64,000 nt of DNA, taken from NCBI GenBank assembly GCA_016208255.1, contig JACQYK010000175.1, positions 3,944 through 67,943 on the forward strand, written 5' to 3'. Below, piece after piece: positions 600 to 11,506 of the stretch. Origin of the DNA: Deltaproteobacteria bacterium (GTDB taxonomy: Bacteria > Desulfobacterota > RBG-13-43-22). The translations under genes were made by a program, and so were the position numbers. Position 1 is the first letter of the stretch, and every line of letters begins with the position of its first letter. The notes beneath the pieces are model-generated. The model was not told the origin of the DNA, made no database searches, and saw only the letters and a program-made list of their open reading frames with translations.

Positions 600-3284
600 A
601 TGACTGAAAATGAATGGAAAACCAGAAAAGAGAGAATCGATAAAAAGCTAAAAGCCCTCAGTCCTGCCTGGAAAATCATCAAATATTTCAATGAACTGGA
701 TACTAAGGGCCTCAACGGATACGCTGTCGAAGAATTTCCTACCGCCAACGGTCCGGCCGATTACGCCCTTTTTGTGAAGGGGATGTGTCTTGGTATCATA
801 GAGGCAAAAAAGGTCGGCGTTGGTCCATACAATGTACTCGAACAGGCCAAGCGGTACGCCAGAGGGGTCTTCCAGGGTATCGGAAATTGGGACGGGTATC
901 GGGTTCCCTTTCTATACGCCACGAATGGAGAGGTGATCTGGCACATTGATGTCAGGGATGAGAAAAACCTATCCCGCCAAATATTCCATTTCCATACCGC
1001 CGAGGCCCTCAAAGAATTCCTGGAGAACGACGGCGCCAACCTATACGTTCTTCTGAGAGATACCCCCATCGACATCGAGGGGATACGACCATATCAGAAA
1101 AAGGCCATCGAGGCCATCGAAACGGCCATCAGCCAAGGCAAGCGGGCCATGCTCGTGGCCATGGCCACCGGAACGGGCAAGACCTTTCTCACCGTCTCTC
1201 AAATCTATCGTCTCCTCCAGGCCAAATGCGCCAGACGGGTTCTTTTTTTGGTCGATCGCCGGGCACTGGCAGCCCAGGCGGTTCGAGAGTTCGCTTCCTT
1301 CAATACCCCTGGAGGGCATAAGTTCGATCAGGAATATGAGGTCTACAGCCAGCGCTTCCGACGTGAAGATTTTGATGAAGACCAACCTTTCGATCCCAAG
1401 GTGCTGCCCAATGCCTATCTGACTGCTCCGCAGGCCTCCCATACCTTTGTCTACGTCTCCACCATCCAGCGGATGGCCATCAATCTCTTTGGGTTTGAAT
1501 CCGCTTTTTCTCAAAGCCGGAGTGATCCCGATTATGAAGACGAGGCGGATAAACTGGACATCCCCATTCATGCTTTTGATCTGATTATCGCCGATGAATG
1601 TCACCGCGGATACACGGCCAGGGATGATGCCGTCTGGCGAGGTGTTATGAATCATTTCGACGCCGTGAAAATCGGCCTAACGGCCACCCCGGCCCTCCAC
1701 ACTCTGTCTCTTTTCAATGAAGTAATCTACCGTTACTCAATGGAAGAGGCCGTGCTTGACGGCTGGCTGGTGGATTATGAGGCGGTAAAGATCAGGTCCG
1801 ACGTGCGTATGCAAGGGGCCTTCCTCAAAGAGGGTGAGCAGGTGGGTTTCATCGACACGGAGACGGGAAAGGAGACTTTCGACCATCTCGAGGATGAGCG
1901 ACAGTTTGGCACGGAAGAAATCGAGGTAAAAATTACTTCCCCGGACAGCAACCGCAAGATTATCAAAGAGCTTGCCCGATATGCTTTTGCTCACGAAAAG
2001 GAAAACGGCCGTTTCCCTAAAACCCTCATCTTTGCCGCCAACGACCTGCCCCACACCTCTCATGCCGACCAAATCGTTCGAATCTGCCGGCAGGAATTCG
2101 GTCAGGGTGACAGTTTTGTTCAGAAAATCACCGGAAGTCCCACGGTGGACAGACCCCTTCAGAAGATACGGGAGTTCAGGAACAGGCCGAATCCCAAAAT
2201 CGTGGTGACTGTTGATATGCTCTCCACCGGTGTCGATATTCCTGCTCTGGAATTCATCGTTTTCCTGCGCCCTGTCAAATCAAGGATCCTTTGGGTGCAG
2301 ATGCTCGGCCGGGGTACGAGAAAATGCGACCTCATCAATAAAGAGAAATTTGTCATCTTCGATTGTTTCGACGGCACATTGATTGAGTATTTCAAGAACA
2401 CTACCGATTTTGACGTCCAGGTATCCAGCCAAGAACCTCTGCCTATCGATCAGGTCATTGAAAACATCTATCAGAACATCGACCGGGACTACTATACCAA
2501 GGTCCTGGTTAAGCGGCTTCACCGCATTGACCGCACCATGAGCGGTCAGGCCCACGAGCAATTCAGAGCTTTCATCCCTGAGGGTGACCTCGGTAAATTT
2601 GCCAAAGAATTGCCGGAAAAGATCAAGAACGATTTTACCAATACTCTGGCCCTTCTTCGTCAGAAAGACTTTCAGGACCTCTTGGTCAATTATGAACGGG
2701 CTAAAAGGACCTTTGTTGTGGGATATGAGGTTGAGGATACCGTGTCATCGGAGGTCATGATCCGTCTCGGCTCCGACTATCAGAAACCGGAAGATTATCT
2801 GGAGGCCTTTGCCCGTTTCGTCAAAGAAAATCCGGAGCAGATCGAGGCCATCAAAATCCTCATGGAAAGGCCGAAACAGTGGAACGCCAAGGCGCTTACC
2901 GAGTTGAGGGCGAAATTAAATCTCAATAAATTTCCTGAGAAGGAGCTACAAAAGGCCCATCAACTGGTTTATAAAAAGGCCCTGGCCGACATCATCTCTA
3001 TGGTAAAACACGCCGCCAGGGAGGAAGAGCCGATTACCTCGGCCCAGGAGCGGGTTGACCGGGCCGTGGCCAAAGTTACAGCAGGGGTTCCCATGACCGA
3101 CGAACAACAAAAATGGCTGGAATATATTCGAAATCATCTTATTGAGAACTTGACCATCGACCTTAATGATTTTGACACCCTGCCTGTCTTTGAACGGCAT
3201 GGTGGACGTAACCGGGCCAATACGGTTTTTAATAATGAATTGGAAAGATGGATAAACGACATCAACTATGCGGTGGCCGCATAG
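600..3284 (+). CDS. hsdR: Type I restriction enzyme R subunit (HsdR)
   Basis: 894 aa. HsdR-type N-terminus (MTENEWKTRKERIDKKL), Walker A MATGTGKT, DEAH-type IIADECHRG and helicase motif VI QMLGRGTR. The C-terminal ~150 aa look like the EcoEI-type R C-terminal domain (from memory). It is the first gene of an R-M-S operon. Confidence 0.93.
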   Translation: MTENEWKTRKERIDKKLKALSPAWKIIKYFNELDTKGLNGYAVEEFPTANGPADYALFVKGMCLGIIEAKKVGVGPYNVLEQAKRYARGVFQGIGNWDGYRVPFLYATNGEVIWHIDVRDEKNLSRQIFHFHTAEALKEFLENDGANLYVLLRDTPIDIEGIRPYQKKAIEAIETAISQGKRAMLVAMATGTGKTFLTVSQIYRLLQAKCARRVLFLVDRRALAAQAVREFASFNTPGGHKFDQEYEVYSQRFRREDFDEDQPFDPKVLPNAYLTAPQASHTFVYVSTIQRMAINLFGFESAFSQSRSDPDYEDEADKLDIPIHAFDLIIADECHRGYTARDDAVWRGVMNHFDAVKIGLTATPALHTLSLFNEVIYRYSMEEAVLDGWLVDYEAVKIRSDVRMQGAFLKEGEQVGFIDTETGKETFDHLEDERQFGTEEIEVKITSPDSNRKIIKELARYAFAHEKENGRFPKTLIFAANDLPHTSHADQIVRICRQEFGQGDSFVQKITGSPTVDRPLQKIREFRNRPNPKIVVTVDMLSTGVDIPALEFIVFLRPVKSRILWVQMLGRGTRKCDLINKEKFVIFDCFDGTLIEYFKNTTDFDVQVSSQEPLPIDQVIENIYQNIDRDYYTKVLVKRLHRIDRTMSGQAHEQFRAFIPEGDLGKFAKELPEKIKNDFTNTLALLRQKDFQDLLVNYERAKRTFVVGYEVEDTVSSEVMIRLGSDYQKPEDYLEAFARFVKENPEQIEAIKILMERPKQWNAKALTELRAKLNLNKFPEKELQKAHQLVYKKALADIISMVKHAAREEEPITSAQERVDRAVAKVTAGVPMTDEQQKWLEYIRNHLIENLTIDLNDFDTLPVFERHGGRNRANTVFNNELERWINDINYAVAA

Positions 3285-3296
3285 AAAGGACCGGTC

Positions 3297-4712
3297 TTGA
3301 CGGATATTGTCAATAAACTCTGGGGATTTTGTCACACTCTACGGCATGACGGCGTGGATTACGGCGATTACATCGAACAGCTTACCTATCTGCTTTTTCT
3401 TAAAATGGCCGACGAAAAAGGGATCACCATCCCTAAGGGTTGTACCTGGGAGGCCTTGAAGAAAGAGTCCGGCCCGGCCCTGATCGATCTCTATTCGGAG
3501 ATACTGCGCAAATTGCGTGATGAAAAGGGCCTGCTCGGCGACATCTTTACCCAGTCAGTGCCCCGCTTTAATAATCCCGTAAATCTAAAACGTCTCATTA
3601 CCATGATCGATGAAGAAGAATGGTCGGCCCTTGATGTCGATGTCAAAGGGGCGGCCTTTGAAGGGCTATTGGAAAAAGCGGCCAGCGAAGGGAAAAAGGG
3701 CGCCGGGCAATACTTCGCCCCCAGGGTCCTGATCAAGTCCATTGTCCGGGTCATGAGGCCCGATCCCCGGACAAACGCGGAATTTACCATCTGCGATCCG
3801 GCCTGCGGCACCGGAGGCTTTCTGATGTGCGCCTATGAGTGGCTGATGGAGATCACCGGCGGGGCCATCGAACGGGATATTGCCAAACGGGTAAAGACCA
3901 AAACCTATTATGGACAGGAACTGGTGCCCCGCCCCAGACGTCTTTCCCTGATGAATCTCTTTCTCCACGGTCTGGAACCCCATATTTATTTGGGCGATGC
4001 CATCTATGAACCCTACCGGGGAAAACTGCATAGTTGCGTCCTGACCAATCCACCCTTCGGCACCAAGGGGGCCAATCAAGCCCCGGAGCGGGATGACTTT
4101 ACCATTGCCACCAGCAACAAACAGCTCAATTTCGTCCAGCACGTCATGAATATCCTCAAGGAAGGAGGCCGGGCGGCCATTGTCCTGCCTGACAACTGTC
4201 TCTTTGAAGACAAAGCGGCCGAGGTCTTTGAAATCCTTATGCAGGACTGCAACCTCCACACGATCCTCCGCCTGCCCAGAGGGACCTTCACCCCCTACAG
4301 CCCCGGCGTGAAAGCCAATGTCATCTTTTTCCAGAAAGGCATGAAAACCGAACAGGTCTGGATATTCGATGCCCGCTCCAATGTGCCGGGCATCACCAAG
4401 AAGGAACGCCCCCTAGGACCCGAACATTTTACCGAATTCGAGGCCGCCTACGGCAAAGACCCCAACGGGCAAAGCAAAAGAAAGGATACCGGCGAACAGG
4501 GCCGGTTCAGACGATTTCATATCAAAGACATCAAAGACCGCTCCTACAAGCTCGACATCACCTGGCTCAGAGACGAATCCCTCGAAGACGCCAATGACTT
4601 GCCCGAGCCGCAGGATTTAGCCGCTGAGGCGATTACGGAATTGGAAGCGGTGGTAGATAGTCTGAGGGATATTGTAGAGTTGCTGGAGAAGGAAGAAGGT
4701 GTGGAGGAGTGA
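3297..4712 (+). CDS. hsdM: Type I R-M N6-adenine DNA methyltransferase (HsdM)
   Basis: 471 aa with a TTG start 12 nt after hsdR. HsdM N-domain (LWGFCHTLRHDG...YLLFLKM), motif I DPACGTGGF and motif IV LTNPPFG. Confidence 0.95.
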   Translation: MTDIVNKLWGFCHTLRHDGVDYGDYIEQLTYLLFLKMADEKGITIPKGCTWEALKKESGPALIDLYSEILRKLRDEKGLLGDIFTQSVPRFNNPVNLKRLITMIDEEEWSALDVDVKGAAFEGLLEKAASEGKKGAGQYFAPRVLIKSIVRVMRPDPRTNAEFTICDPACGTGGFLMCAYEWLMEITGGAIERDIAKRVKTKTYYGQELVPRPRRLSLMNLFLHGLEPHIYLGDAIYEPYRGKLHSCVLTNPPFGTKGANQAPERDDFTIATSNKQLNFVQHVMNILKEGGRAAIVLPDNCLFEDKAAEVFEILMQDCNLHTILRLPRGTFTPYSPGVKANVIFFQKGMKTEQVWIFDARSNVPGITKKERPLGPEHFTEFEAAYGKDPNGQSKRKDTGEQGRFRRFHIKDIKDRSYKLDITWLRDESLEDANDLPEPQDLAAEAITELEAVVDSLRDIVELLEKEEGVEE

Positions 4713-6142
4713 GAGAAGAGTTGCCACGAGGATGGAGTATGGCAGAATTAGAGAGCGTTGCCGAACTTGTCAGCGGGGCTGGTTTTCCTTTGAACCTCCA
4801 AAGCCAGACAGGATTTACTTTCCCGTTTTTTAAAGTTGGAAATTTGAAGGATGTAGCTTCAGGAAAACCTTTAGTCTCTTCCGAACACACGATTTCTGAA
4901 AGAGCCGCCTACTCGCTCCGGGCTAGGATTATCCCAGAGGAAGCCACTGTGTTTGCAAAAATCGGCATGGCTATAAGCTTAAACCGAAGACGTCTGATTG
5001 GAAGGCCTGCTTGTATTGATAACAACATGATGGCTGCTATACCAAACGAGGCTATACATCCCAGTTATCTCTTACGCTTTCTTGAGACGGTTGATTTTAT
5101 GCCTTTAACTCAAGCTACAACAGTTCCGAGTCTTCGGAAGGGCAATATAGCAAAGATTCTGGTTCCACTGGCACCTTTGGAGGAACAGCGCCGTATCGTG
5201 GTAAAGCTGGAAAAACTTTTGGAGAAAGTCGAATCCAGCCGGACACGTCTTGAAAAGATTCCCGTCGTCCTCAAACGCTTTCGCCAATCCGTCCTCGCCG
5301 CCGCCTGCTCTGGCCGTCTCACTGCCGATTGGAGGGAGCAATCAAAACAATCAATCGAACATATCATCAGAGATAACAATACTGCCCTGCCTGAAATTCC
5401 CGAAAGTTGGCGATGGGTAAAACTTCCGGATACAGGGGAAATGAGTCGTGGAAAGTCGCGGCATAGACCAAGAAATGAGCCTTCATTATTTGATGGACAA
5501 TACCCTTTCATCCAAACTGGTGATATTGCCCAGTCAGGGGGTAGAATTACCTCCCATAAGCAAACTTATAATGAGGCAGGTCTTGCCCAGAGCCGTCTTT
5601 GGCCAGCTAACACCATTTGCATCACGATCGCTGCGAACATTGCTGAGTCGGCCATTTTGACCTATCCAGCATGTTTTCCCGACAGCATTGTCGGGATCAT
5701 TGCAAATTCTGTGGTCTGTTTGGCAGAGTATGTTGAATTTTTCATCCGGGTAGCGAAAACAGATCTATCGACATTTGCCCCTGCGACGGCCCAGAAGAAC
5801 ATCAATATTGCCATTTTAAATGAGGTGGCTGTCCCTCTCCCCCCTCTAATAGAACAACATGAAATCGTCCGCCGTGTGGAAGAACTCTTTGCCCTTGCCG
5901 ACCAGATCGAAGCCCGTTACCAGAAAGCAAAAGCCCATGTGGACAAACTCACCCAATCCATCCTGGCCAAAGCCTTCCGTGGCGAACTCGTCCCCCAAGA
6001 CCCAAACGATACACCTGCGATAATTTTGTTGAGTGAAATTGATATTGGCAAGAAATACTTTAAAAACACCCTTCTCAAAAGATCAAAGATGAGAGAAAAA
6101 CATAAAATAAAAACTAGAGAGGGAACACATGGAGGCGAATGA
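4709..6142 (+). CDS. hsdS: Type I R-M specificity subunit (HsdS)
   Basis: 477 aa with a GTG start overlapping the hsdM stop (GTGA). Two variable target-recognition regions are separated by conserved repeats (LAPLEEQRRIVVKLEKLL and LPPLIEQHEIVRRVEELFALADQIE). Confidence 0.9.
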   Translation: MREELPRGWSMAELESVAELVSGAGFPLNLQSQTGFTFPFFKVGNLKDVASGKPLVSSEHTISERAAYSLRARIIPEEATVFAKIGMAISLNRRRLIGRPACIDNNMMAAIPNEAIHPSYLLRFLETVDFMPLTQATTVPSLRKGNIAKILVPLAPLEEQRRIVVKLEKLLEKVESSRTRLEKIPVVLKRFRQSVLAAACSGRLTADWREQSKQSIEHIIRDNNTALPEIPESWRWVKLPDTGEMSRGKSRHRPRNEPSLFDGQYPFIQTGDIAQSGGRITSHKQTYNEAGLAQSRLWPANTICITIAANIAESAILTYPACFPDSIVGIIANSVVCLAEYVEFFIRVAKTDLSTFAPATAQKNINIAILNEVAVPLPPLIEQHEIVRRVEELFALADQIEARYQKAKAHVDKLTQSILAKAFRGELVPQDPNDTPAIILLSEIDIGKKYFKNTLLKRSKMREKHKIKTREGTHGGE

Positions 6143-7016
6143 TAATCTTGAAATTAAATTCAGGCTGGAGGGTCCGATTTTCCAAACTGGTATTCCTTTA
6201 TTAGAGACAATCGTAGCCTTACAAGAATTTCATTTTATTATTGATAAAGCATACTCTGCGAATTTTAATATCGCAAAATTAACAAAGAAAGAGAGACAAC
6301 ATTATAGCATTATTGCACAGAATTTTCAGAAAGGATCATTTGAGGCCGATTTGATGTTCGTCATCGCATCTGGCACTCAATTGCTTCTCCCAAGCATTCA
6401 AGCATTTGGCCCGAAAGAACTGTGGGATCTCGTTAAAGCATCGTTCTCCTTTTTGAAAGCAATTATTACCGCAAGGAATTCAGAGACCGAACCCACTGTC
6501 AATATTGAAGGACACGGCAACCATGTCTATATTATGAACGATAATGTGATTAAAATAAGCCAACATGTTTATAATGCTGCAGACTTGTCAGAACCGCATT
6601 ATAAGAAGCTTACTTCTGTTATTGAAAAAAATAAAATTGATTCTATCACTGGAATGGATTCGTCTGGAGAAGGGATTGAACTGACCGAGAACGAGAAAAA
6701 ACTATTTAACCCTAAGGTTACGGTGGAAAAAGAAGTTCTTAAAGTTCGATGCAGTGTCTTTCGATTCGACAAAGAAGCAAACATCGGTAAATTGCGGGTT
6801 TCTCCGGGAGAACCAGTTCCACCGGGCGAATATAATTTCAAACCTATTGCATCGGGAGATTATAGAAAATTTATAGTTGCGATGATGCATTCCTCGGTAA
6901 CATTAAACATATTGAAAGAAATTGAAGTGCATACCTCAGGCTTAAAACGTATCTCATCTTTACATGTGGTCTCATTTGAAGATTTTCAGCAAGAATCCCT
7001 ATTTTCATTGACATGA
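6129..7016 (+). CDS. Hypothetical protein, 295 aa, coupled to hsdS
   Basis: The ATG at 6129 lies inside the last 14 nt of hsdS, with a purine-rich AGAGAGGG upstream. It is a long uninterrupted ORF that is visibly AT-rich relative to hsdR/hsdM. I recognise no motif. Confidence 0.6.
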   Translation: MEANDNLEIKFRLEGPIFQTGIPLLETIVALQEFHFIIDKAYSANFNIAKLTKKERQHYSIIAQNFQKGSFEADLMFVIASGTQLLLPSIQAFGPKELWDLVKASFSFLKAIITARNSETEPTVNIEGHGNHVYIMNDNVIKISQHVYNAADLSEPHYKKLTSVIEKNKIDSITGMDSSGEGIELTENEKKLFNPKVTVEKEVLKVRCSVFRFDKEANIGKLRVSPGEPVPPGEYNFKPIASGDYRKFIVAMMHSSVTLNILKEIEVHTSGLKRISSLHVVSFEDFQQESLFSLT

Positions 7017-7070: not shown

Positions 7071-7099
7071 TAGATATAGTATACTCCGTGTGCTATAAT
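7071..7099 (+). promoter_or_regulatory. Candidate sigma70 promoter/operator of the abiE operon
   Basis: TATAAT at 7094-7099 with a weak -35 (TAGATA, 7071-7076) at 17-nt spacing. The perfect palindrome AGTATACT lies between them. AbiEi proteins are known autorepressors. Confidence 0.35.
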
Positions 7100-7137: not shown

Positions 7138-7947
7138 ATGAAGTCCGTTTCGGGGTTAGGAAAAGAGTCGAGAAAACAATTAACGAAGGTACTACGCGGA
7201 ACGACCGGAACGATATCGGTCGCCCAAGCTGCGAGTATTCTTAATCTCCCTTCGATCAAAGCCGCAAAACTTCTTTGGGGATGGAATGAACAGGGTTGGG
7301 TCTCCCGCGTTATGCGAGGAGTATACGTTCCTGTTCCACTCAATGCTGAATCCCCTGACGTGTCCCTCGAAGACCCTTGGATTATTGCCGAAAAATTATT
7401 CTCACCTTGTTATATCGGAGGGTGGAGCGCCGCTGAACATTGGGGTCTTACCGAGCAAATTTTTCGGACAGTAGTTGTTTTGACAACTCGGAAACCAAGA
7501 AACCGCAGTCCTAAAATCAAGGGAACCGATTTTTTGTTGCGAACCATATCGCCTAAGGCTATGTTCGGCCTCAACCCGGTCTGGAGAGGACAGGTTAAGG
7601 TAGCTGTATCCGATCCGGCACGAACGATTGTTGATATGTTGGATAACCCTCAGCTCGGGGGAGGTATGCGTACAGTTGTCGATATCCTTCGGAACTACCT
7701 GAAGTCTGAGACCGAGGATTCTGCGCGTCTGATTGGATACGCCAAACGATTGGGCAATAGCGCTGTCTTTAAGCGCCTTGGTTTTCTCCTGGAATCTGTC
7801 GCACCGGAAGAGGCGGAAGCCATTAAAACCTGCCTTCTCAACATGAAAACAGGAAAAGTCAAGTTTGACCCAGACCTTCAATCCGAAAGATTGGTCACCC
7901 GATGGAAGTTGTGGGTTCCAAAGAATTGGAAGCAGGCTAAGAAATAG
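7138..7947 (+). CDS. abiEi: AbiEi-family antitoxin/transcriptional regulator (type IV TA)
   Basis: 269 aa. N-terminal wHTH-like segment (ISVAQAASILNLPSIKAAKLLWGWNEQGWVSRVMRGVY) and GGWSAAEHWGLTEQ, typical of the AbiEi_4 type. It sits directly upstream of a DUF1814 NTase. Confidence 0.85.
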   Translation: MKSVSGLGKESRKQLTKVLRGTTGTISVAQAASILNLPSIKAAKLLWGWNEQGWVSRVMRGVYVPVPLNAESPDVSLEDPWIIAEKLFSPCYIGGWSAAEHWGLTEQIFRTVVVLTTRKPRNRSPKIKGTDFLLRTISPKAMFGLNPVWRGQVKVAVSDPARTIVDMLDNPQLGGGMRTVVDILRNYLKSETEDSARLIGYAKRLGNSAVFKRLGFLLESVAPEEAEAIKTCLLNMKTGKVKFDPDLQSERLVTRWKLWVPKNWKQAKK

Positions 7948-7959
7948 AGGATATTTTCG

Positions 7960-9390
7960 TTGATCAGCCGTCAAGAAATAATGGATTTTTCGAGAGAGTT
8001 CGGACTTGCGCCGAATGTGATCGAAAAGGACTATGCCCTCGGATGGGTGCTTGCCGGAATTGCAAATACCGAAGGACTTGGTACTGTCTGGGTTTTTAAA
8101 GGCGGGACCGCTCTCAAGAAATGTTTCTTTGAAACCTATCGATTCTCGGAGGACCTGGATTTTACAGTCACTGAGGAAAAGTATCTGGACCCAGACTCTC
8201 TGACCGAGATATTTCGCAAGATTGGTGATTGGGTATACGAACAGGCAGGCCTTGAGATTCCTAGAGATACAATTCGCTTTGAAAGCTATACTACCCCACG
8301 GGGAAAAACCTCTGTTCAGGGACGCATCGGCTATCGAGGGCCCCTGAAGCCGGGCGGGGATCTGCCTCGTATAAGATTTGACCTAACCAAAGATGAATTG
8401 GTAGTTTTAAATCCGGAGATGAGAGAAGTACACCATCCTCATTCCGATTCACCGACTGATGGTATCCACGTTTTATCCTATTGTTTCGAAGAAGTTTTTG
8501 CCGAGAAGATTCGTGCCTTGGCTGAAAGGGAAAGGCCCCGCGACCTTTATGACGTGATCCATCTCTTCAGACATTCCAATGAAGCGGTGGATAGACCACT
8601 TTTGGTGAAAACGTTGGAGAAGAAGTGCGCATTTAAAGGAATACCTCTGCCTTCCTTTGACACCCTGGCCACCAGTCCTGAGTATAGTGAACTTAAATCG
8701 GAATGGCAAAACATGTTGGCCCATCAATTGCCGGTTTTGCCTCCCTTTGAACAATTTTGGAACGAGCTTCCCGACATGTTTAACTGGCTGTATGGGAAGG
8801 TAGAGAAGGTGGTTCAACCGGTGATTCCGTCCATTGGAATTCCCGGTGATGATCGATGGCGAGCGCCCACTATGGCAACGGCCTGGCACTCCAAAGTGCC
8901 GATTGAAGTCATTCGATATGCCGGGGCGAATCGTCTTTGTGTTGACTTGCAGTATCAAGGAAACAAGAGACTTATTGAGCCCTATTCTTTGCGTCGTTCC
9001 CGCGAAGGGAATTTGCTCCTGTACGCAGCAAAGCATATATCGGGAGAACCAAGAGCATACAGAGTGGATCGTATTGAAGGAGCCGCCGTAACCAATAAAC
9101 CCTTTACTCCTCGTTATACTATTGAATTCTCAGAATCTGGTTCCATTTCCGCACCACCCATTAGCCGAAATCCTGAAATTTATCGCCCAACTAAGACGAG
9201 AAGCCCCTTGACAATTGGTTTTGGAACTAAGCGGCTTGCTTCAGGGTATGGCCCAAAATATATTTTCGAATGTCCAATTTGCGAAAAGAAGTTTACCCAT
9301 AGATCATACGATGCATCACTGCGTCCTCATAAAGATAAGGACGGATATCCATGTGGAGGTCGGCTTGGGATCTACATTGATACGAAATGA
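7960..9390 (+). CDS. abiEii: AbiEii/DUF1814 nucleotidyltransferase toxin with a C-terminal WYL-like domain and Zn-ribbon
   Basis: 476 aa. N-terminus IEKDYALGWVL...FKGGTALKK...RFSEDLDF is the AbiEii hallmark. aa ~313-385 are WYL-like (RLIEPYSLRRSREGNLLLYAAKHISGEPRAYRVDRIEG). aa 434-470 read CPIC...H...CGG. The start may be TTG at 7960 or ATG at 7981. Confidence 0.85.
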   Translation: MISRQEIMDFSREFGLAPNVIEKDYALGWVLAGIANTEGLGTVWVFKGGTALKKCFFETYRFSEDLDFTVTEEKYLDPDSLTEIFRKIGDWVYEQAGLEIPRDTIRFESYTTPRGKTSVQGRIGYRGPLKPGGDLPRIRFDLTKDELVVLNPEMREVHHPHSDSPTDGIHVLSYCFEEVFAEKIRALAERERPRDLYDVIHLFRHSNEAVDRPLLVKTLEKKCAFKGIPLPSFDTLATSPEYSELKSEWQNMLAHQLPVLPPFEQFWNELPDMFNWLYGKVEKVVQPVIPSIGIPGDDRWRAPTMATAWHSKVPIEVIRYAGANRLCVDLQYQGNKRLIEPYSLRRSREGNLLLYAAKHISGEPRAYRVDRIEGAAVTNKPFTPRYTIEFSESGSISAPPISRNPEIYRPTKTRSPLTIGFGTKRLASGYGPKYIFECPICEKKFTHRSYDASLRPHKDKDGYPCGGRLGIYIDTK

Positions 9391-9402: not shown

Positions 9403-10062
9403 ATGAAACGGGTCAAAGATATTCCAAAAGATGAAAGGCCGAGGGAAAAGCTGGCCAAGAAAGGACCGCAAGCGTTATCCGATGTGGAACTGATTGCTAT
9501 TCTCCTTGGCCGGGGCATAGAAGGGCATGATGTGATGTCCGTGGCAAATCAGGTCTTGATCGCCATTGATTCCAACGGGGGAACGCCCGATTGTGCGGCG
9601 CTTCAGAATATCGCCGGCATGGGACCGGCCAAGGCTACCCTGATTGCCGCTGCCCTTGAGTTTGCCCGAAGAAGGATCAAGCCGGAAGGATTTAAAATAG
9701 CTTTTCCATCTGACGTGCTCCCTTTGATTCAGCATTATGCCGACAGGAAGCAGGAACATTTCCTCTGCGTTTCTCTAAACGGTTCCAATGAAGTCATAGC
9801 CGTGAGGGTCATCTCTGTTGGGCTGGTCAATAAGACCCATGTTCACCCCCGCGAGGTTTTTGCCGATGCCATAACGGACCGGGCCAGCGCGATCATCGTC
9901 GCTCACAACCATCCTTCGGGAAATGTGGAACCAGGCAAGGAAGACCTTGAAATCACCAAACAGCTTAAATCAGCAGGGGAGATCCTGGGCATCAAACTCC
10001 TCGATCATATTATTTTCAATAGGACGAGTTATTACAGCCTTCTTGAAAAGAACGAAATATGA
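9403..10062 (+). CDS. radC: RadC-like JAB/JAMM domain protein
   Basis: 219 aa. HhH-like N-terminus (LSDVELIAILLGRG) and JAMM motif AHNHPSGNVEPGKED. It starts 12 nt after abiEii. Confidence 0.9.
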   Translation: MKRVKDIPKDERPREKLAKKGPQALSDVELIAILLGRGIEGHDVMSVANQVLIAIDSNGGTPDCAALQNIAGMGPAKATLIAAALEFARRRIKPEGFKIAFPSDVLPLIQHYADRKQEHFLCVSLNGSNEVIAVRVISVGLVNKTHVHPREVFADAITDRASAIIVAHNHPSGNVEPGKEDLEITKQLKSAGEILGIKLLDHIIFNRTSYYSLLEKNEI

Positions 10063-10221: not shown

Positions 10222-11506
10222 TCACTTGACTGCCATGATCCGCGCCCAGCAGGGATTGACAACCGGGATGCGGACTTTTCCGCCGCGGATCGGAAACCGG
10301 TCGCCCTGGTTCAGCAGATCAATCAACTGCTTCTTGTCCGGCTCCGGAACCGGTAAATCCAGGGGAACCGGTTTGTCCGCGGCGTTAACGGCCACAATGA
10401 CACATTCTTCCGGCGTCTGCCGGGCAAAGGCCATTTGCTCGGACTTGACTAAGAGGGGGCGATAAAGGCCATAGCGCAGGGCCTGGGAGTGATGCCGGAT
10501 TTGAGCCAGGCGGTTTAGGACACCGGGCAAATCCGGGTGCGGGCTGTTCTGAGAGATCTGGGAATAATCGAGACAGGGTCGAAGGGCCCGGTCGCTTCGG
10601 CTGCTTCTTTTCCCGGCGATTCCCCATTCACTTCCATAGTAAATGGAAGGGATACCCGGCATGGTAAACAACAGGCTGTAAAGCGGGTAGAGATGGGCCG
10701 GGTTTTTGAGCTGGCTGGCCACGCGATGGACATCATGGTTGTCGGCGAATGAATAGAGGAGGAGATCCCGATAGATCCCCTTTTCTCCAAACTGCCGATT
10801 CAGGGTGTGGGCCAGTTCAAAATAATTCCGGTCGGCGTGGCTTGAGTATAAACCCTTGTAACCGACATAGTTGGTGACCGAATCCAGGGTTTCCGGGTTG
10901 ACCCATTTCCGGTAATCGCCGTGGATCACTTCGCCCATCAACCAGAAATCGGCCCGGCGGGTCTTACAAAAAGACCTTAAGTCTTTTAAAAAAGAAAGAT
11001 CGAGACTGTCGGCTACATCCAGTCTCAGTCCATCAATATTAAATTCCCGAATCCATGATTCGATGGCCTGAAAAAGATGGGCCTTAATCGAGGGATTAAG
11101 TAAATTGAGCTTAACCAGGCTGCAATGGCCGTTCCAGTTATCGTAGGTGAAGGGATCATTATAGGGGCTGCGCTTGCTGAAGTCGAGCCCCTGAAACCAG
11201 TCGAATTCCCTTTTGATGGAGACGGGTGCTCAGGTCTGTCAAAGTTTTATTGCTTCCCAGCCGGCGGTCCACCTGAAAATAATCGGCTGTGTCATAGCCA
11301 TGGGAAGTGGATTCAAATAATGGTCCCAGATAAAGGGCATTCACTCCCAATTGCTTTAAATGGTCTATCCAGGGATACAATTGTTCCAGCCGAGGTTCGG
11401 GTGGGGAGCAGAAGTCATTCTCAAAAGGAGCGCCACAGAACCCGAACGGATAAATGTGATAAAAAAACGCATCATATGCCCAATGCGCCAAGAAAAACCT
11501 CCTCAA
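10222..11506 (-). pseudogene. GH13 alpha-amylase-family glycosidase, disrupted by an internal deletion and frameshift
   Basis: The N-terminal fragment 11159..11506 (HWAYDAFFYHIYPFGFCG...NALYLGPLFES..HGYDTADYF) and the C-terminal part (...NIDGLRLDVADSL..., FADNHDVHR) are in different frames. The expected ~30 aa after HQKGIRL (VLDGVFNH...) are missing near 11200. Confidence 0.8.

Follow-up and report, generated by a model that had tools for sequence, protein, structure and literature searches.

The window analysed here is a 64,000-nucleotide (nt) stretch of a Deltaproteobacteria bacterium genome (contig JACQYK010000175.1, positions 3,944 to 67,943, assembly GCA_016208255.1), and the element in question is a two-gene AbiE toxin-antitoxin (TA) locus whose AbiEii toxin continues, beyond its nucleotidyltransferase (NTase) core, into a WYL domain and a small module with a CCHC pattern of predicted zinc ligands (Table 1). 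It is close to certain that this is an intact AbiE pair and that its toxin belongs to a WYL-CCHC subfamily. The antitoxin gene comes first, and the gap between the two genes is 12 nt. The N-terminal sequence of the toxin, MISRQEIMDFSREFGL, agrees with the consensus of 120 homologues; therefore, the TTG start codon is credible. The open reading frame (ORF) of the antitoxin has, in addition to the matches in Table 1, a weak match to the winged helix-turn-helix (wHTH) family AbiEi_4 of Pfam. The pair (window positions 7138-9390) adjoins a type I restriction-modification (RM) operon at its 3' end. AbiE was first termed a type IV TA system and is classed as type VII in a 2026 preprint (bioRxiv 10.64898/2026.01.19.700257).

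Table 1. Features of the window (positions in the window) and of related toxin loci (positions within each locus, where given). aa, amino acids; pLDDT, predicted local distance difference test score; CBASS, cyclic oligonucleotide-based antiphage signalling system; 4TM, four-transmembrane
Feature	Position or loci	Strand	Remarks
Toxin ORF, AbiEii NTase-WYL-CCHC	7960..9390	+	Uninterrupted, 476 aa, TTG start
AbiEii/DUF1814 (MenT-like) NTase core, aa 1-285	7960..8814	+	Pfam PF08843, Foldseek, conservation
Codon for S63, predicted phospho-acceptor	8146..8148	+	S63 invariant in 120 homologues; R-F-S-x-D-x-D motif position
Conserved connector, aa 286-314	8815..8901	+	W300, P303, M305, A308, W309, and P314 conserved
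WYL domain, aa 315-385	8902..9114	+	Pfam PF13280, AlphaFold, Foldseek; one helix and five-stranded Sm-like barrel
Disordered basic linker, aa 386-433	9115..9258	+	Ser/Pro/Arg/Thr-rich; pLDDT below 50 at 392-428
Predicted CCHC zinc-binding module, aa 434-476	9259..9387	+	C438-x2-C441-x15-H457-x7-C465
Shine-Dalgarno GAGGA	7947..7951	+	8 nt 5' of TTG; shares final base of abiEi stop codon; read from sequence
AbiEi antitoxin/transcriptional regulator, 269 aa	7138..7947	+	Pfam AbiEi_1 (C-terminal domain) E 9e-8; PADLOC AbiEi PDLC02271 E 2e-110
Promoter-like site 5' of abiEi	7071..7099	+	TAGATA-17-TATAAT, extended -10 TG; consensus scan 10/12; pattern match only
HsdR, type I restriction subunit, 894 aa	600..3284	+	Pfam HSDR_N, ResIII, Helicase_C, EcoEI_R_C (E 1.6e-34)
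HsdM, type I methyltransferase, 471 aa	3297..4712	+	Pfam N6_Mtase E 4.5e-58, HsdM_N; NPPFG in translation
HsdS, specificity subunit, 477 aa	4709..6142	+	Pfam Methylase_S E 4.3e-31, two stretches
Unannotated 295-aa ORF	6129..7016	+	Between hsdS and abiEi; 14-nt overlap with hsdS end; low-GC stretch (GC 0.37)
RadC-like JAB-domain gene	9403..10062	+	Pfam RadC E 4.9e-41, UPF0758_N; 13 nt 3' of toxin
Toxin form NTase-WYL-CCHC	About 40/80 loci		Form of the window
Toxin form NTase-WYL	L095, L098, L104, L143, L151, L162, L163		Toxin ends in PRFxVEF and stop; no CCHC encoded downstream
Toxin form plain NTase, about 270-300 aa	About 14 loci		No WYL domain
Sister-clade loci	L083:2501-3895, L084:2501-3739, L086:4001-5398, L088-L094, L168-L178
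Sister clade, Streptomyces plasmid	L084: cyclase 1029-2153, toxin 2501-3739		CBASS cyclase PDLC00776, E 3e-116
Sister clade, L090 type (= L091, L171-L175)	L090: 4175-7210		4TM CBASS effector PDLC00719, toxin, cyclase PDLC00769 (E 2e-91)
Sister clade	L083, L168		Neighbour: DUF3800-like gene
Sister clade	L169		Neighbour: BubE
Sister clade	L178		Neighbour: DUF5677
Sister clade	L176		Neighbour: AAA_15/21 ATPase
Sister clade	L086, L170, L177		No obvious partner gene

The initial annotation of this DNA had read the 476-aa ORF at 7960-9390 as a protein with an AbiEii NTase core from aa 1 to about 285, and profile and structure searches agree. Pfam AbiEii PF08843 covers aa 30-267 (E 9.5e-36; score, 124 bits; cutoff, 22.5), and 38 AbiEii profiles of PADLOC match the toxin, the best of which, PDLC02317 (396 positions), aligns to aa 1-397 with an E value of 8e-175; NCBIfam returned zero matches for the toxin, AbiEi, or the 295-aa ORF. 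The core motifs K47-G-G-T50, R61-F-S63-E-D65-L-D67-F, D141, K183/R185, and R194-D-L-Y-D198 are invariant or nearly so among the 120 homologues. An AlphaFold2 model was built from the 120-sequence alignment (mean pLDDT, 79.9; predicted template modelling score, 0.75). Searched with Foldseek against the PDB, the core of this model matched MenT4 (6y56; E 1.4e-6), MenT3/TglT, JHP933, and MenT1; phmmer against the PDB gave marginal matches only, the toxin being distant by sequence. MenT toxins and the AbiEii protein of Streptococcus agalactiae add nucleotides to tRNA 3' ends, and the antitoxins of these WYL-less relatives induce autophosphorylation of an active-site serine or threonine, S78 in MenT3 and T65 in AbiEii (PMC7450476, PMC10435456, PMC11375011, bioRxiv 10.64898/2026.01.19.700257). 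By motif position, S63 is predicted to be the equivalent of both residues. The loop between the GG motif and S63 (aa 50-60; window 8107-8139) is the sole segment of the core with a pLDDT below 50, as would fit an active-site loop that is mobile.

A WYL domain had been proposed near aa 313-385 (the WYL-like peptide that was quoted begins at I315), and its presence is now supported by profile, model, and superposition. Pfam PF13280 matches aa 317-376 with 25.8 bits in a scan of the full protein, above the gathering cutoff of 21.8, and a scan restricted to the C-terminal 176 aa raises the score to 27.9 bits; the PADLOC WYL model PDLC01652 also matches (E 2e-7). In the AlphaFold model, the region folds as a helix (315-323) followed by five strands (326-332, 335-347, 352-358, 364-368, and 372-381) at a pLDDT of about 91-94, in keeping with the Sm-like beta-barrel for which the initial annotation had suggested looking. 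Foldseek with the full-length model placed this barrel on DriD in complex with single-stranded DNA (ssDNA) (7tzv_A; 75 columns; root mean square deviation [rmsd], 1.4 Å; 27% identity). A second model, of aa 307-476 alone (pLDDT, 80.9), superposed on DriD 7tzv_A at 1.3 Å and on BrxR (7qfz) at 2.0 Å, with a probability of 1.00. CapW and PafBC were also returned for the barrel, with Sm proteins lower in the list. The conserved connector that precedes the domain contains a short helix (305-310), modelled with moderate confidence.

The conserved basic and aromatic residues of the WYL domain are R319, Y332, R337, Y342, R345, K358, H359, R365, Y367, R368, and R371, and R365-x-Y367-R368 is conserved at 95-100% across 65 species-level sequences. 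In DriD, ssDNA is contacted by Y168, R176, R178, Y192, K202, R204, W206, and R207 (PMC9186387), and the toxin motif resembles the DriD strand R204-x-W206-R207 in a comparison made at the motif level only. In CapW, the ligand residues are S144, R164, R168, and R184, and arginines flank the WHV motif (PMC11662680). At this level, conservation of the DriD/CapW ligand pocket is only partly supported. Beyond the barrel, the linker varies from 28 to 51 residues across the family. The mean net charges of the 65 species-level sequences are -13.7 for the NTase core, +3.9 for the WYL domain, +5.1 for the linker, and +6.2 for the zinc module; the C-terminal 160 residues are positively charged.

The tail that follows the linker had been described as a Zn-ribbon on the strength of its CPIC...H...CGG sequence. 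The four ligands stand: C438, C441, H457, and C465 are 100% invariant in the 120 database homologues and in the 65 species-level sequences (47-62% identity), within a family signature of Y-x3-C-x2-C-x-K-x-F...L-x2-H-K-x3-G-x2-C-x-G, and the other histidine of the tail, H447, is 51% conserved and is mostly replaced by Arg elsewhere. The ribbon class is not established: there is one CxxC only, with no profile match above threshold and no fold match specific to the tail. AlphaFold models the tail as a small beta structure of short strands with no helix (pLDDT, 85-95). Among the Pfam zinc-finger models, zf-C2H2 reaches 13-14 bits (cutoff, 25.2) and B129_C2H2-zf and zf-met also stay below threshold, and Foldseek on the aa 307-476 model returned WYL matches only, none specific to the zinc tail. 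The family profile weakly resembles C2H2 fingers, its match to a Gfi-1 finger having an E value of 3e-4. There, the CxxC hairpins line up, H457 takes the place of the second His of the finger, Ser or Lys stands where the first would be, and C465 falls at the first Cys of the following finger. A canonical zinc ribbon or C2H2 finger is ruled out by the single CxxC, the H-x7-C second half, and the lack of a helix. "CCHC zinc module" is therefore a defensible name for what is predicted to bind zinc. We found no published description of this tail, which is also missing from the account of Makarova et al. 2014 and from PADLOC PDLC02317.

The initial annotation had asked whether the fusion might come from a sequencing error and how common it is; it proved to be genuine and widespread. 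A search of 5.8 billion proteins gave 7,745 matches, of which the best 120 were analysed. All 119 complete sequences among them are 460-494 aa long (58-82% identity, the nearest database relative being 82% identical), and nearly all are annotated with PF08843 plus PF13280 under the source name "nucleotidyl transferase AbiEii/AbiGii toxin family protein." In a species-level scan, which took one genome per species and used the C-terminal module as the query, at least 550 species genomes had a stretch encoding the module. The 80 loci kept for comparison span Nitrospirota, Desulfobacterota, Gamma- and Betaproteobacteria, Acidobacteriota, Atribacterota, Spirochaetota, Actinomycetes, Planctomycetales, Elusimicrobia, and others. 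A single uninterrupted ORF covers aa 1-476 in 64 of these 80 loci; the other 16 are affected by contig ends, frameshifts, or stop codons or are remnants. Furthermore, an AbiEi homologue lies directly upstream in 73 of the 80, and the remaining 7 have no upstream DNA or are remnants; AbiEi is an obligatory partner of the window-type toxin.

The closest relative, the locus L001 (ENA ERZ25039602 contig_18543, 453177-470148), is syntenic with the window, with the same gene order, including RadC, and a toxin that is 92-95% identical. Its hsdR, hsdM, abiEi, and toxin genes are each split by frameshifts, most likely through indel error in a long-read assembly, and this explains the truncated 323-aa database protein P0005. 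The region after radC differs between L001 and the window.

Genes for HsdS or HsdM flank the abiEi-abiEii(WYL) pair in 22 of the 80 related loci (e.g., L008, L010, L015, L019, L071, L075, and L076), where HsdS-like genes lie upstream and HsdM-like genes begin at or overlap the toxin stop codon; no type I RM genes occur within 5 kb in the other 58. The 295-aa ORF between hsdS and abiEi has no significant match in Pfam, NCBIfam, or PADLOC, matches a phage protein family of unknown function (phrog_33593; E 2.6e-24), and is absent beside the toxin in the 80 related loci. No convincing operator-like inverted repeats were seen in the region 5' of abiEi. Directly 3' of the toxin, radC is also found in L001 and in only two of the 80 other loci (L078 and L080); RadC was therefore ruled out as a conserved third component, given that L001 is near-identical to the window. 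Farther along, at 10222-11506 on the minus strand, an alpha-amylase-family gene is apparently disrupted; two separate ORFs, which encode an N-terminal part of 115 aa and a C-terminal part of 239 aa, match Pfam Alpha-amylase and Malt_amylase_C and are separated by a gap and a change of frame.

Neither C-terminal module is fixed within the wider group. A metagenome sample of 80 loci from the same NTase sub-branch, picked by N-terminal NTase motifs, contained three coexisting forms of the toxin, all with AbiEi upstream: the form of the window, an NTase-WYL form without the CCHC tail, and a plain NTase (Table 1). Because WYL-less and tail-less forms coexist with the full-length form, both C-terminal modules are best seen as accretions that are not obligatory for AbiE function. 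The 396-position profile PDLC02317 probably represents the tail-less NTase-WYL subgroup, which has the same length.

Some in-frame stop codons were also seen. Four lie inside the linker, with an intact CCHC tail downstream in the same frame (L006:2542, TGA; L073:5307, TAA; L113:3969, TGA; L117:2158, TGA). These four unrelated loci account for 4 of the 6 nonsense events seen, and the linker makes up about 10% of the gene (binomial P of about 0.001). The stops could be tolerated truncations to the natural NTase-WYL form or could be read through; they share no sequence context at the codon (TGA C, TAA C, TGA T, and TGA A), and programmed recoding is unsupported. A close relative of L073, L053, has a Lys codon at the stop position. 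Separately, locus L020 (position 4878), from a metagenome-assembled genome of Eubacteriales, has TGA at the near-invariant Trp267, so that FEQFW becomes FEQY and stop; this is either a TGG-to-TGA nonsense mutation or a TGA read as Trp.

Plasmid and metagenome searches also revealed a sister clade whose members are about 27% identical to the window toxin and align with it end to end. The clade is large, with 1,705 proteins at E <= 1e-20, window-type proteins counted in. The four zinc ligands are retained, within the signature C-x2-C...F-x-R...L-N-x-H-K...G-x2-C-x-G-R-x-G, and the WYL domain is missed by Pfam and weakly detected by the PADLOC WYL model. None of the twelve sister-clade loci examined has AbiEi, which implies that a protein that keeps both the WYL domain and the CCHC module can be held inactive without this antitoxin. 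Members are found on mobile elements or in defence islands, beside genes that vary from locus to locus. Two lineages adjoin CBASS oligonucleotide cyclases: one on a Streptomyces plasmid and the other on one freshwater mobile element, represented by 13 contigs, whose operon has a cyclase ORF that overlaps the stop codon of the toxin gene. CBASS linkage as a general trait of the clade was rejected, since these are the only two independent lineages and seven other members have unrelated neighbours. The two associations are thus a lead and not a rule, and the cyclase-adjacent toxin may be a new CBASS-associated component. No CBASS cyclase occurs among the neighbours of the window toxin (HsdR/M/S, the 295-aa ORF, AbiEi, and RadC), and cyclase queries against 80 window-type loci from metagenomes or genomes found none beside an AbiEi-linked toxin. 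We found no description of this antitoxin-less, sometimes CBASS-linked clade in the literature.

How might such a toxin work? Judged by MenT1, MenT3, MenT4, and S. agalactiae AbiEii, the core would add nucleotides to tRNA 3' ends and thereby arrest translation; by homology, AbiEi would bind the toxin and induce autophosphorylation at S63, turning it off. The fold, charge, and conservation of the WYL-CCHC tail, together with the solved WYL domains, suggest that the tail would bind single-stranded nucleic acid. WYL1 binds single-stranded RNA (ssRNA). The WYL domains of DriD, CapW, and PafBC bind 3-4 nt of ssDNA (DriD, PMC9186387; CapW, PMC11662680). Phage infection or DNA damage would then give rise to single-stranded nucleic acid, and this in turn would favour a toxin that is active, being unphosphorylated or free of AbiEi. 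The toxin itself would thus be signal-responsive, in line with the proposal of Makarova et al. 2014 that WYL senses a negatively charged ligand to regulate Abi systems (PMC4012209). We prefer this reading, in which the tail is a signal sensor that gates the NTase, and put its probability at about 0.5. It is favoured because the antitoxin-less proteins share the tail, so that the tail may help to keep the enzyme off; the two sister-clade lineages that adjoin CBASS cyclases are counted on the same side.

Several points weigh against a sensing role. We found no published experiment on any WYL-bearing AbiEii, and there is no mention of WYL in PMC11375011 or bioRxiv 10.64898/2026.01.19.700257. AbiEi is kept in every window-type locus, so antitoxin control may suffice and the tail need not regulate anything. 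Natural relatives lack the CCHC tail, or both modules, and neither is essential to the AbiE mechanism. The arginines that flank the motif of CapW (RWHVR) have no counterpart in the toxin (N351-LLL-Y355). A WYL-only family profile reached no WYL protein among PDB sequences, DriD and CapW included; a mixed profile was swamped by zinc fingers. The literal W-Y-L tripeptide is also missing, the toxin having the degenerate L352-L-L-Y355; however, bona fide members are also degenerate, with NYL in DriD (PMC9186387) and WHV in CapW (PMC11662680), and membership in the WYL family is therefore not excluded. Finally, the word "sensor," used in the initial annotation, is an interpretation: recruitment of a substrate, whether tRNA or another RNA, would be equally natural for a basic WYL-zinc tail, and the computations reported here do not separate the two.

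A bolder form of the gating model holds that the tail is a self-contained, ligand-gated switch able to replace the antitoxin, keeping the NTase off in the AbiEi-less clade until a signal binds and, in at least two lineages, taking the CBASS product as its signal. We consider this unlikely. If it were true, these proteins would be a new class of CBASS effector, a tRNA nucleotidyltransferase activated by cyclic oligonucleotides or ssDNA, and the window toxin would be under dual control, by AbiEi-induced phosphorylation and by ligand gating.

The alternative that survives best, which we regard as possible on a tentative footing, is that the tail is a substrate-recruiting arm, capturing the single-stranded 3' end of tRNA or RNA, or another feature of it, and setting specificity or affinity, with AbiEi alone providing regulation. 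The characterized relatives act on single-stranded 3'-CCA tRNA ends, WYL domains hold single-stranded nucleic acid over 3-4 nt irrespective of base identity, and the tail is strongly basic and the core acidic. Likewise, long flexible linkers that carry a small zinc module are typical of appendages that bind RNA, and AbiEi is retained in all window-type loci. The WYL domain of a Pif1-family helicase is reported to bind ssDNA for substrate handling and not for sensing. However, AbiEii relatives without WYL and without the tail exist in the same NTase sub-branch, the characterized MenT and AbiEii toxins modify tRNA without such an arm, and the antitoxin-less sister clade would need another means of staying inactive. 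In addition, DriD prefers ssDNA over ssRNA (PMC9186387).

It is improbable that the tail has a purely structural or docking role, mediating oligomerization or contacting AbiEi or another protein, such as the neighbouring type I RM complex (compare PrrC-EcoprrI), with nucleic acid-binding ancestry being irrelevant. The setting of the window and of the 22 related loci among hsdS and hsdM genes would fit such a role, as would the part that WYL takes in domain packing in HTH-WYL regulators and the conservation of W300 and W309 in the connector; however, the 58 loci away from type I RM genes, together with the retention of the tail by the sister clade in quite different gene contexts, argue against it, and an anionic ligand better fits conserved residues that are mainly of a surface type (Arg, Lys, and Tyr) in uniformly basic segments. 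The weakest reading, that a sequencing or assembly error has joined a separate gene to abiEii as its C-terminal part or that the gene is a decaying pseudogene, can be dismissed: shorter "WYL-only" proteins do occur in databases, L002 was called as two genes, and several relatives have frameshifts or stop codons, but 247 of 266 such short proteins are in-register fragments of the fused protein, the apparent split of L002, on a long contig, into AbiEii plus a WYL protein comes from a frameshift across which homology is continuous (aa 1-271 in frame 1 and aa 266-476 in frame 3), and the uninterrupted window ORF, found as the same single ORF in 119 of the 120 top homologues as well as in the 64 loci noted above, keeps all of its catalytic, WYL, and zinc residues.

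With gating by a sensor tail as the preferred reading, the system can be set beside those already known. Like AbiE of Lactococcus lactis and S. agalactiae, it is a two-gene operon with the antitoxin first, it has the PF08843 catalytic motifs with a predicted Ser/Thr phospho-acceptor in the active site, its AbiEi combines an N-terminal wHTH with a C-terminal antitoxin domain, and it lies in a defence-island context. Unlike the toxin of the window, classical AbiEii proteins, of about 250-320 aa by the range given in the initial annotation, end after the C-terminal helical domain of the NTase; the window toxin has about 190 extra residues, comprising the connector, WYL domain, linker, and CCHC module. 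The Mycobacterium tuberculosis toxins MenT1 (8an4), MenT3/TglT (6y5u/6j7s), and MenT4 (6y56) are the best structural matches to aa 1-290, share the DUF1814 fold and motifs, and supply the working model of nucleotide addition to tRNA 3' ends that antitoxin-induced autophosphorylation neutralizes; in contrast, they are only 12-19% identical in sequence, have neither a WYL nor a zinc module, and are paired with diverse MenA antitoxins, that of MenT1 not being AbiEi-like.

The fusion is not new, contrary to what the initial annotation had implied. The family of the window toxin is the one that Makarova et al. 2014 (PMC4012209) listed as WYL plus AbiGII-like NTase (DUF1814) and that the PADLOC profile PDLC02317, which spans the WYL domain, describes; it is encoded, as noted above, in at least 550 species genomes. 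The profile differs in that it stops at position 396, where the naturally tail-less subgroup ends. The window toxin is thus an ordinary member of an abundant, already catalogued AbiEii subfamily. The more publishable part of these findings would be the invariant CCHC module, together with the sister clade that lacks the antitoxin and is sometimes CBASS-linked.

The gene setting is reminiscent of PrrC-EcoprrI, an anticodon nuclease whose gene lies inside a type I RM operon and which the RM complex itself silences. Both would be tRNA-targeting suicide effectors encoded in or next to such an operon, as in the window and the 22 related loci; however, PrrC is an unrelated nuclease and not a nucleotidyltransferase, and the window-type toxin always has a dedicated AbiEi.

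With the HTH-WYL-WCX transcription factors DriD, PafBC, CapW, and BrxR, the toxin shares the WYL fold (rmsd of 1.3-2.0 Å over 73-75 columns), a similar conserved R-x-aromatic-R strand, and an association with defence loci, and the ligand of these factors is ssDNA. It shares the WYL domain only, since it has neither an HTH nor a WCX/dimerization domain. DriD and CapW rely on their linker and WCX domain to complete the ligand pocket, and both of these are missing here; consequently, the WYL pocket of the toxin must be completed otherwise, perhaps by the Trp-containing connector. The toxins of this subfamily themselves carry a type of domain for which all solved examples bind ssDNA as a signal of damage or infection, and the tail therefore bears on how NTase toxins escape antitoxin-induced autophosphorylation during infection. 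In the transcription factors the output is promoter binding, whereas here the chain that carries the WYL domain also carries the output, an enzyme, and the WYL-CCHC tail bears on whether WYL domains can regulate enzymes in cis, beyond transcription.

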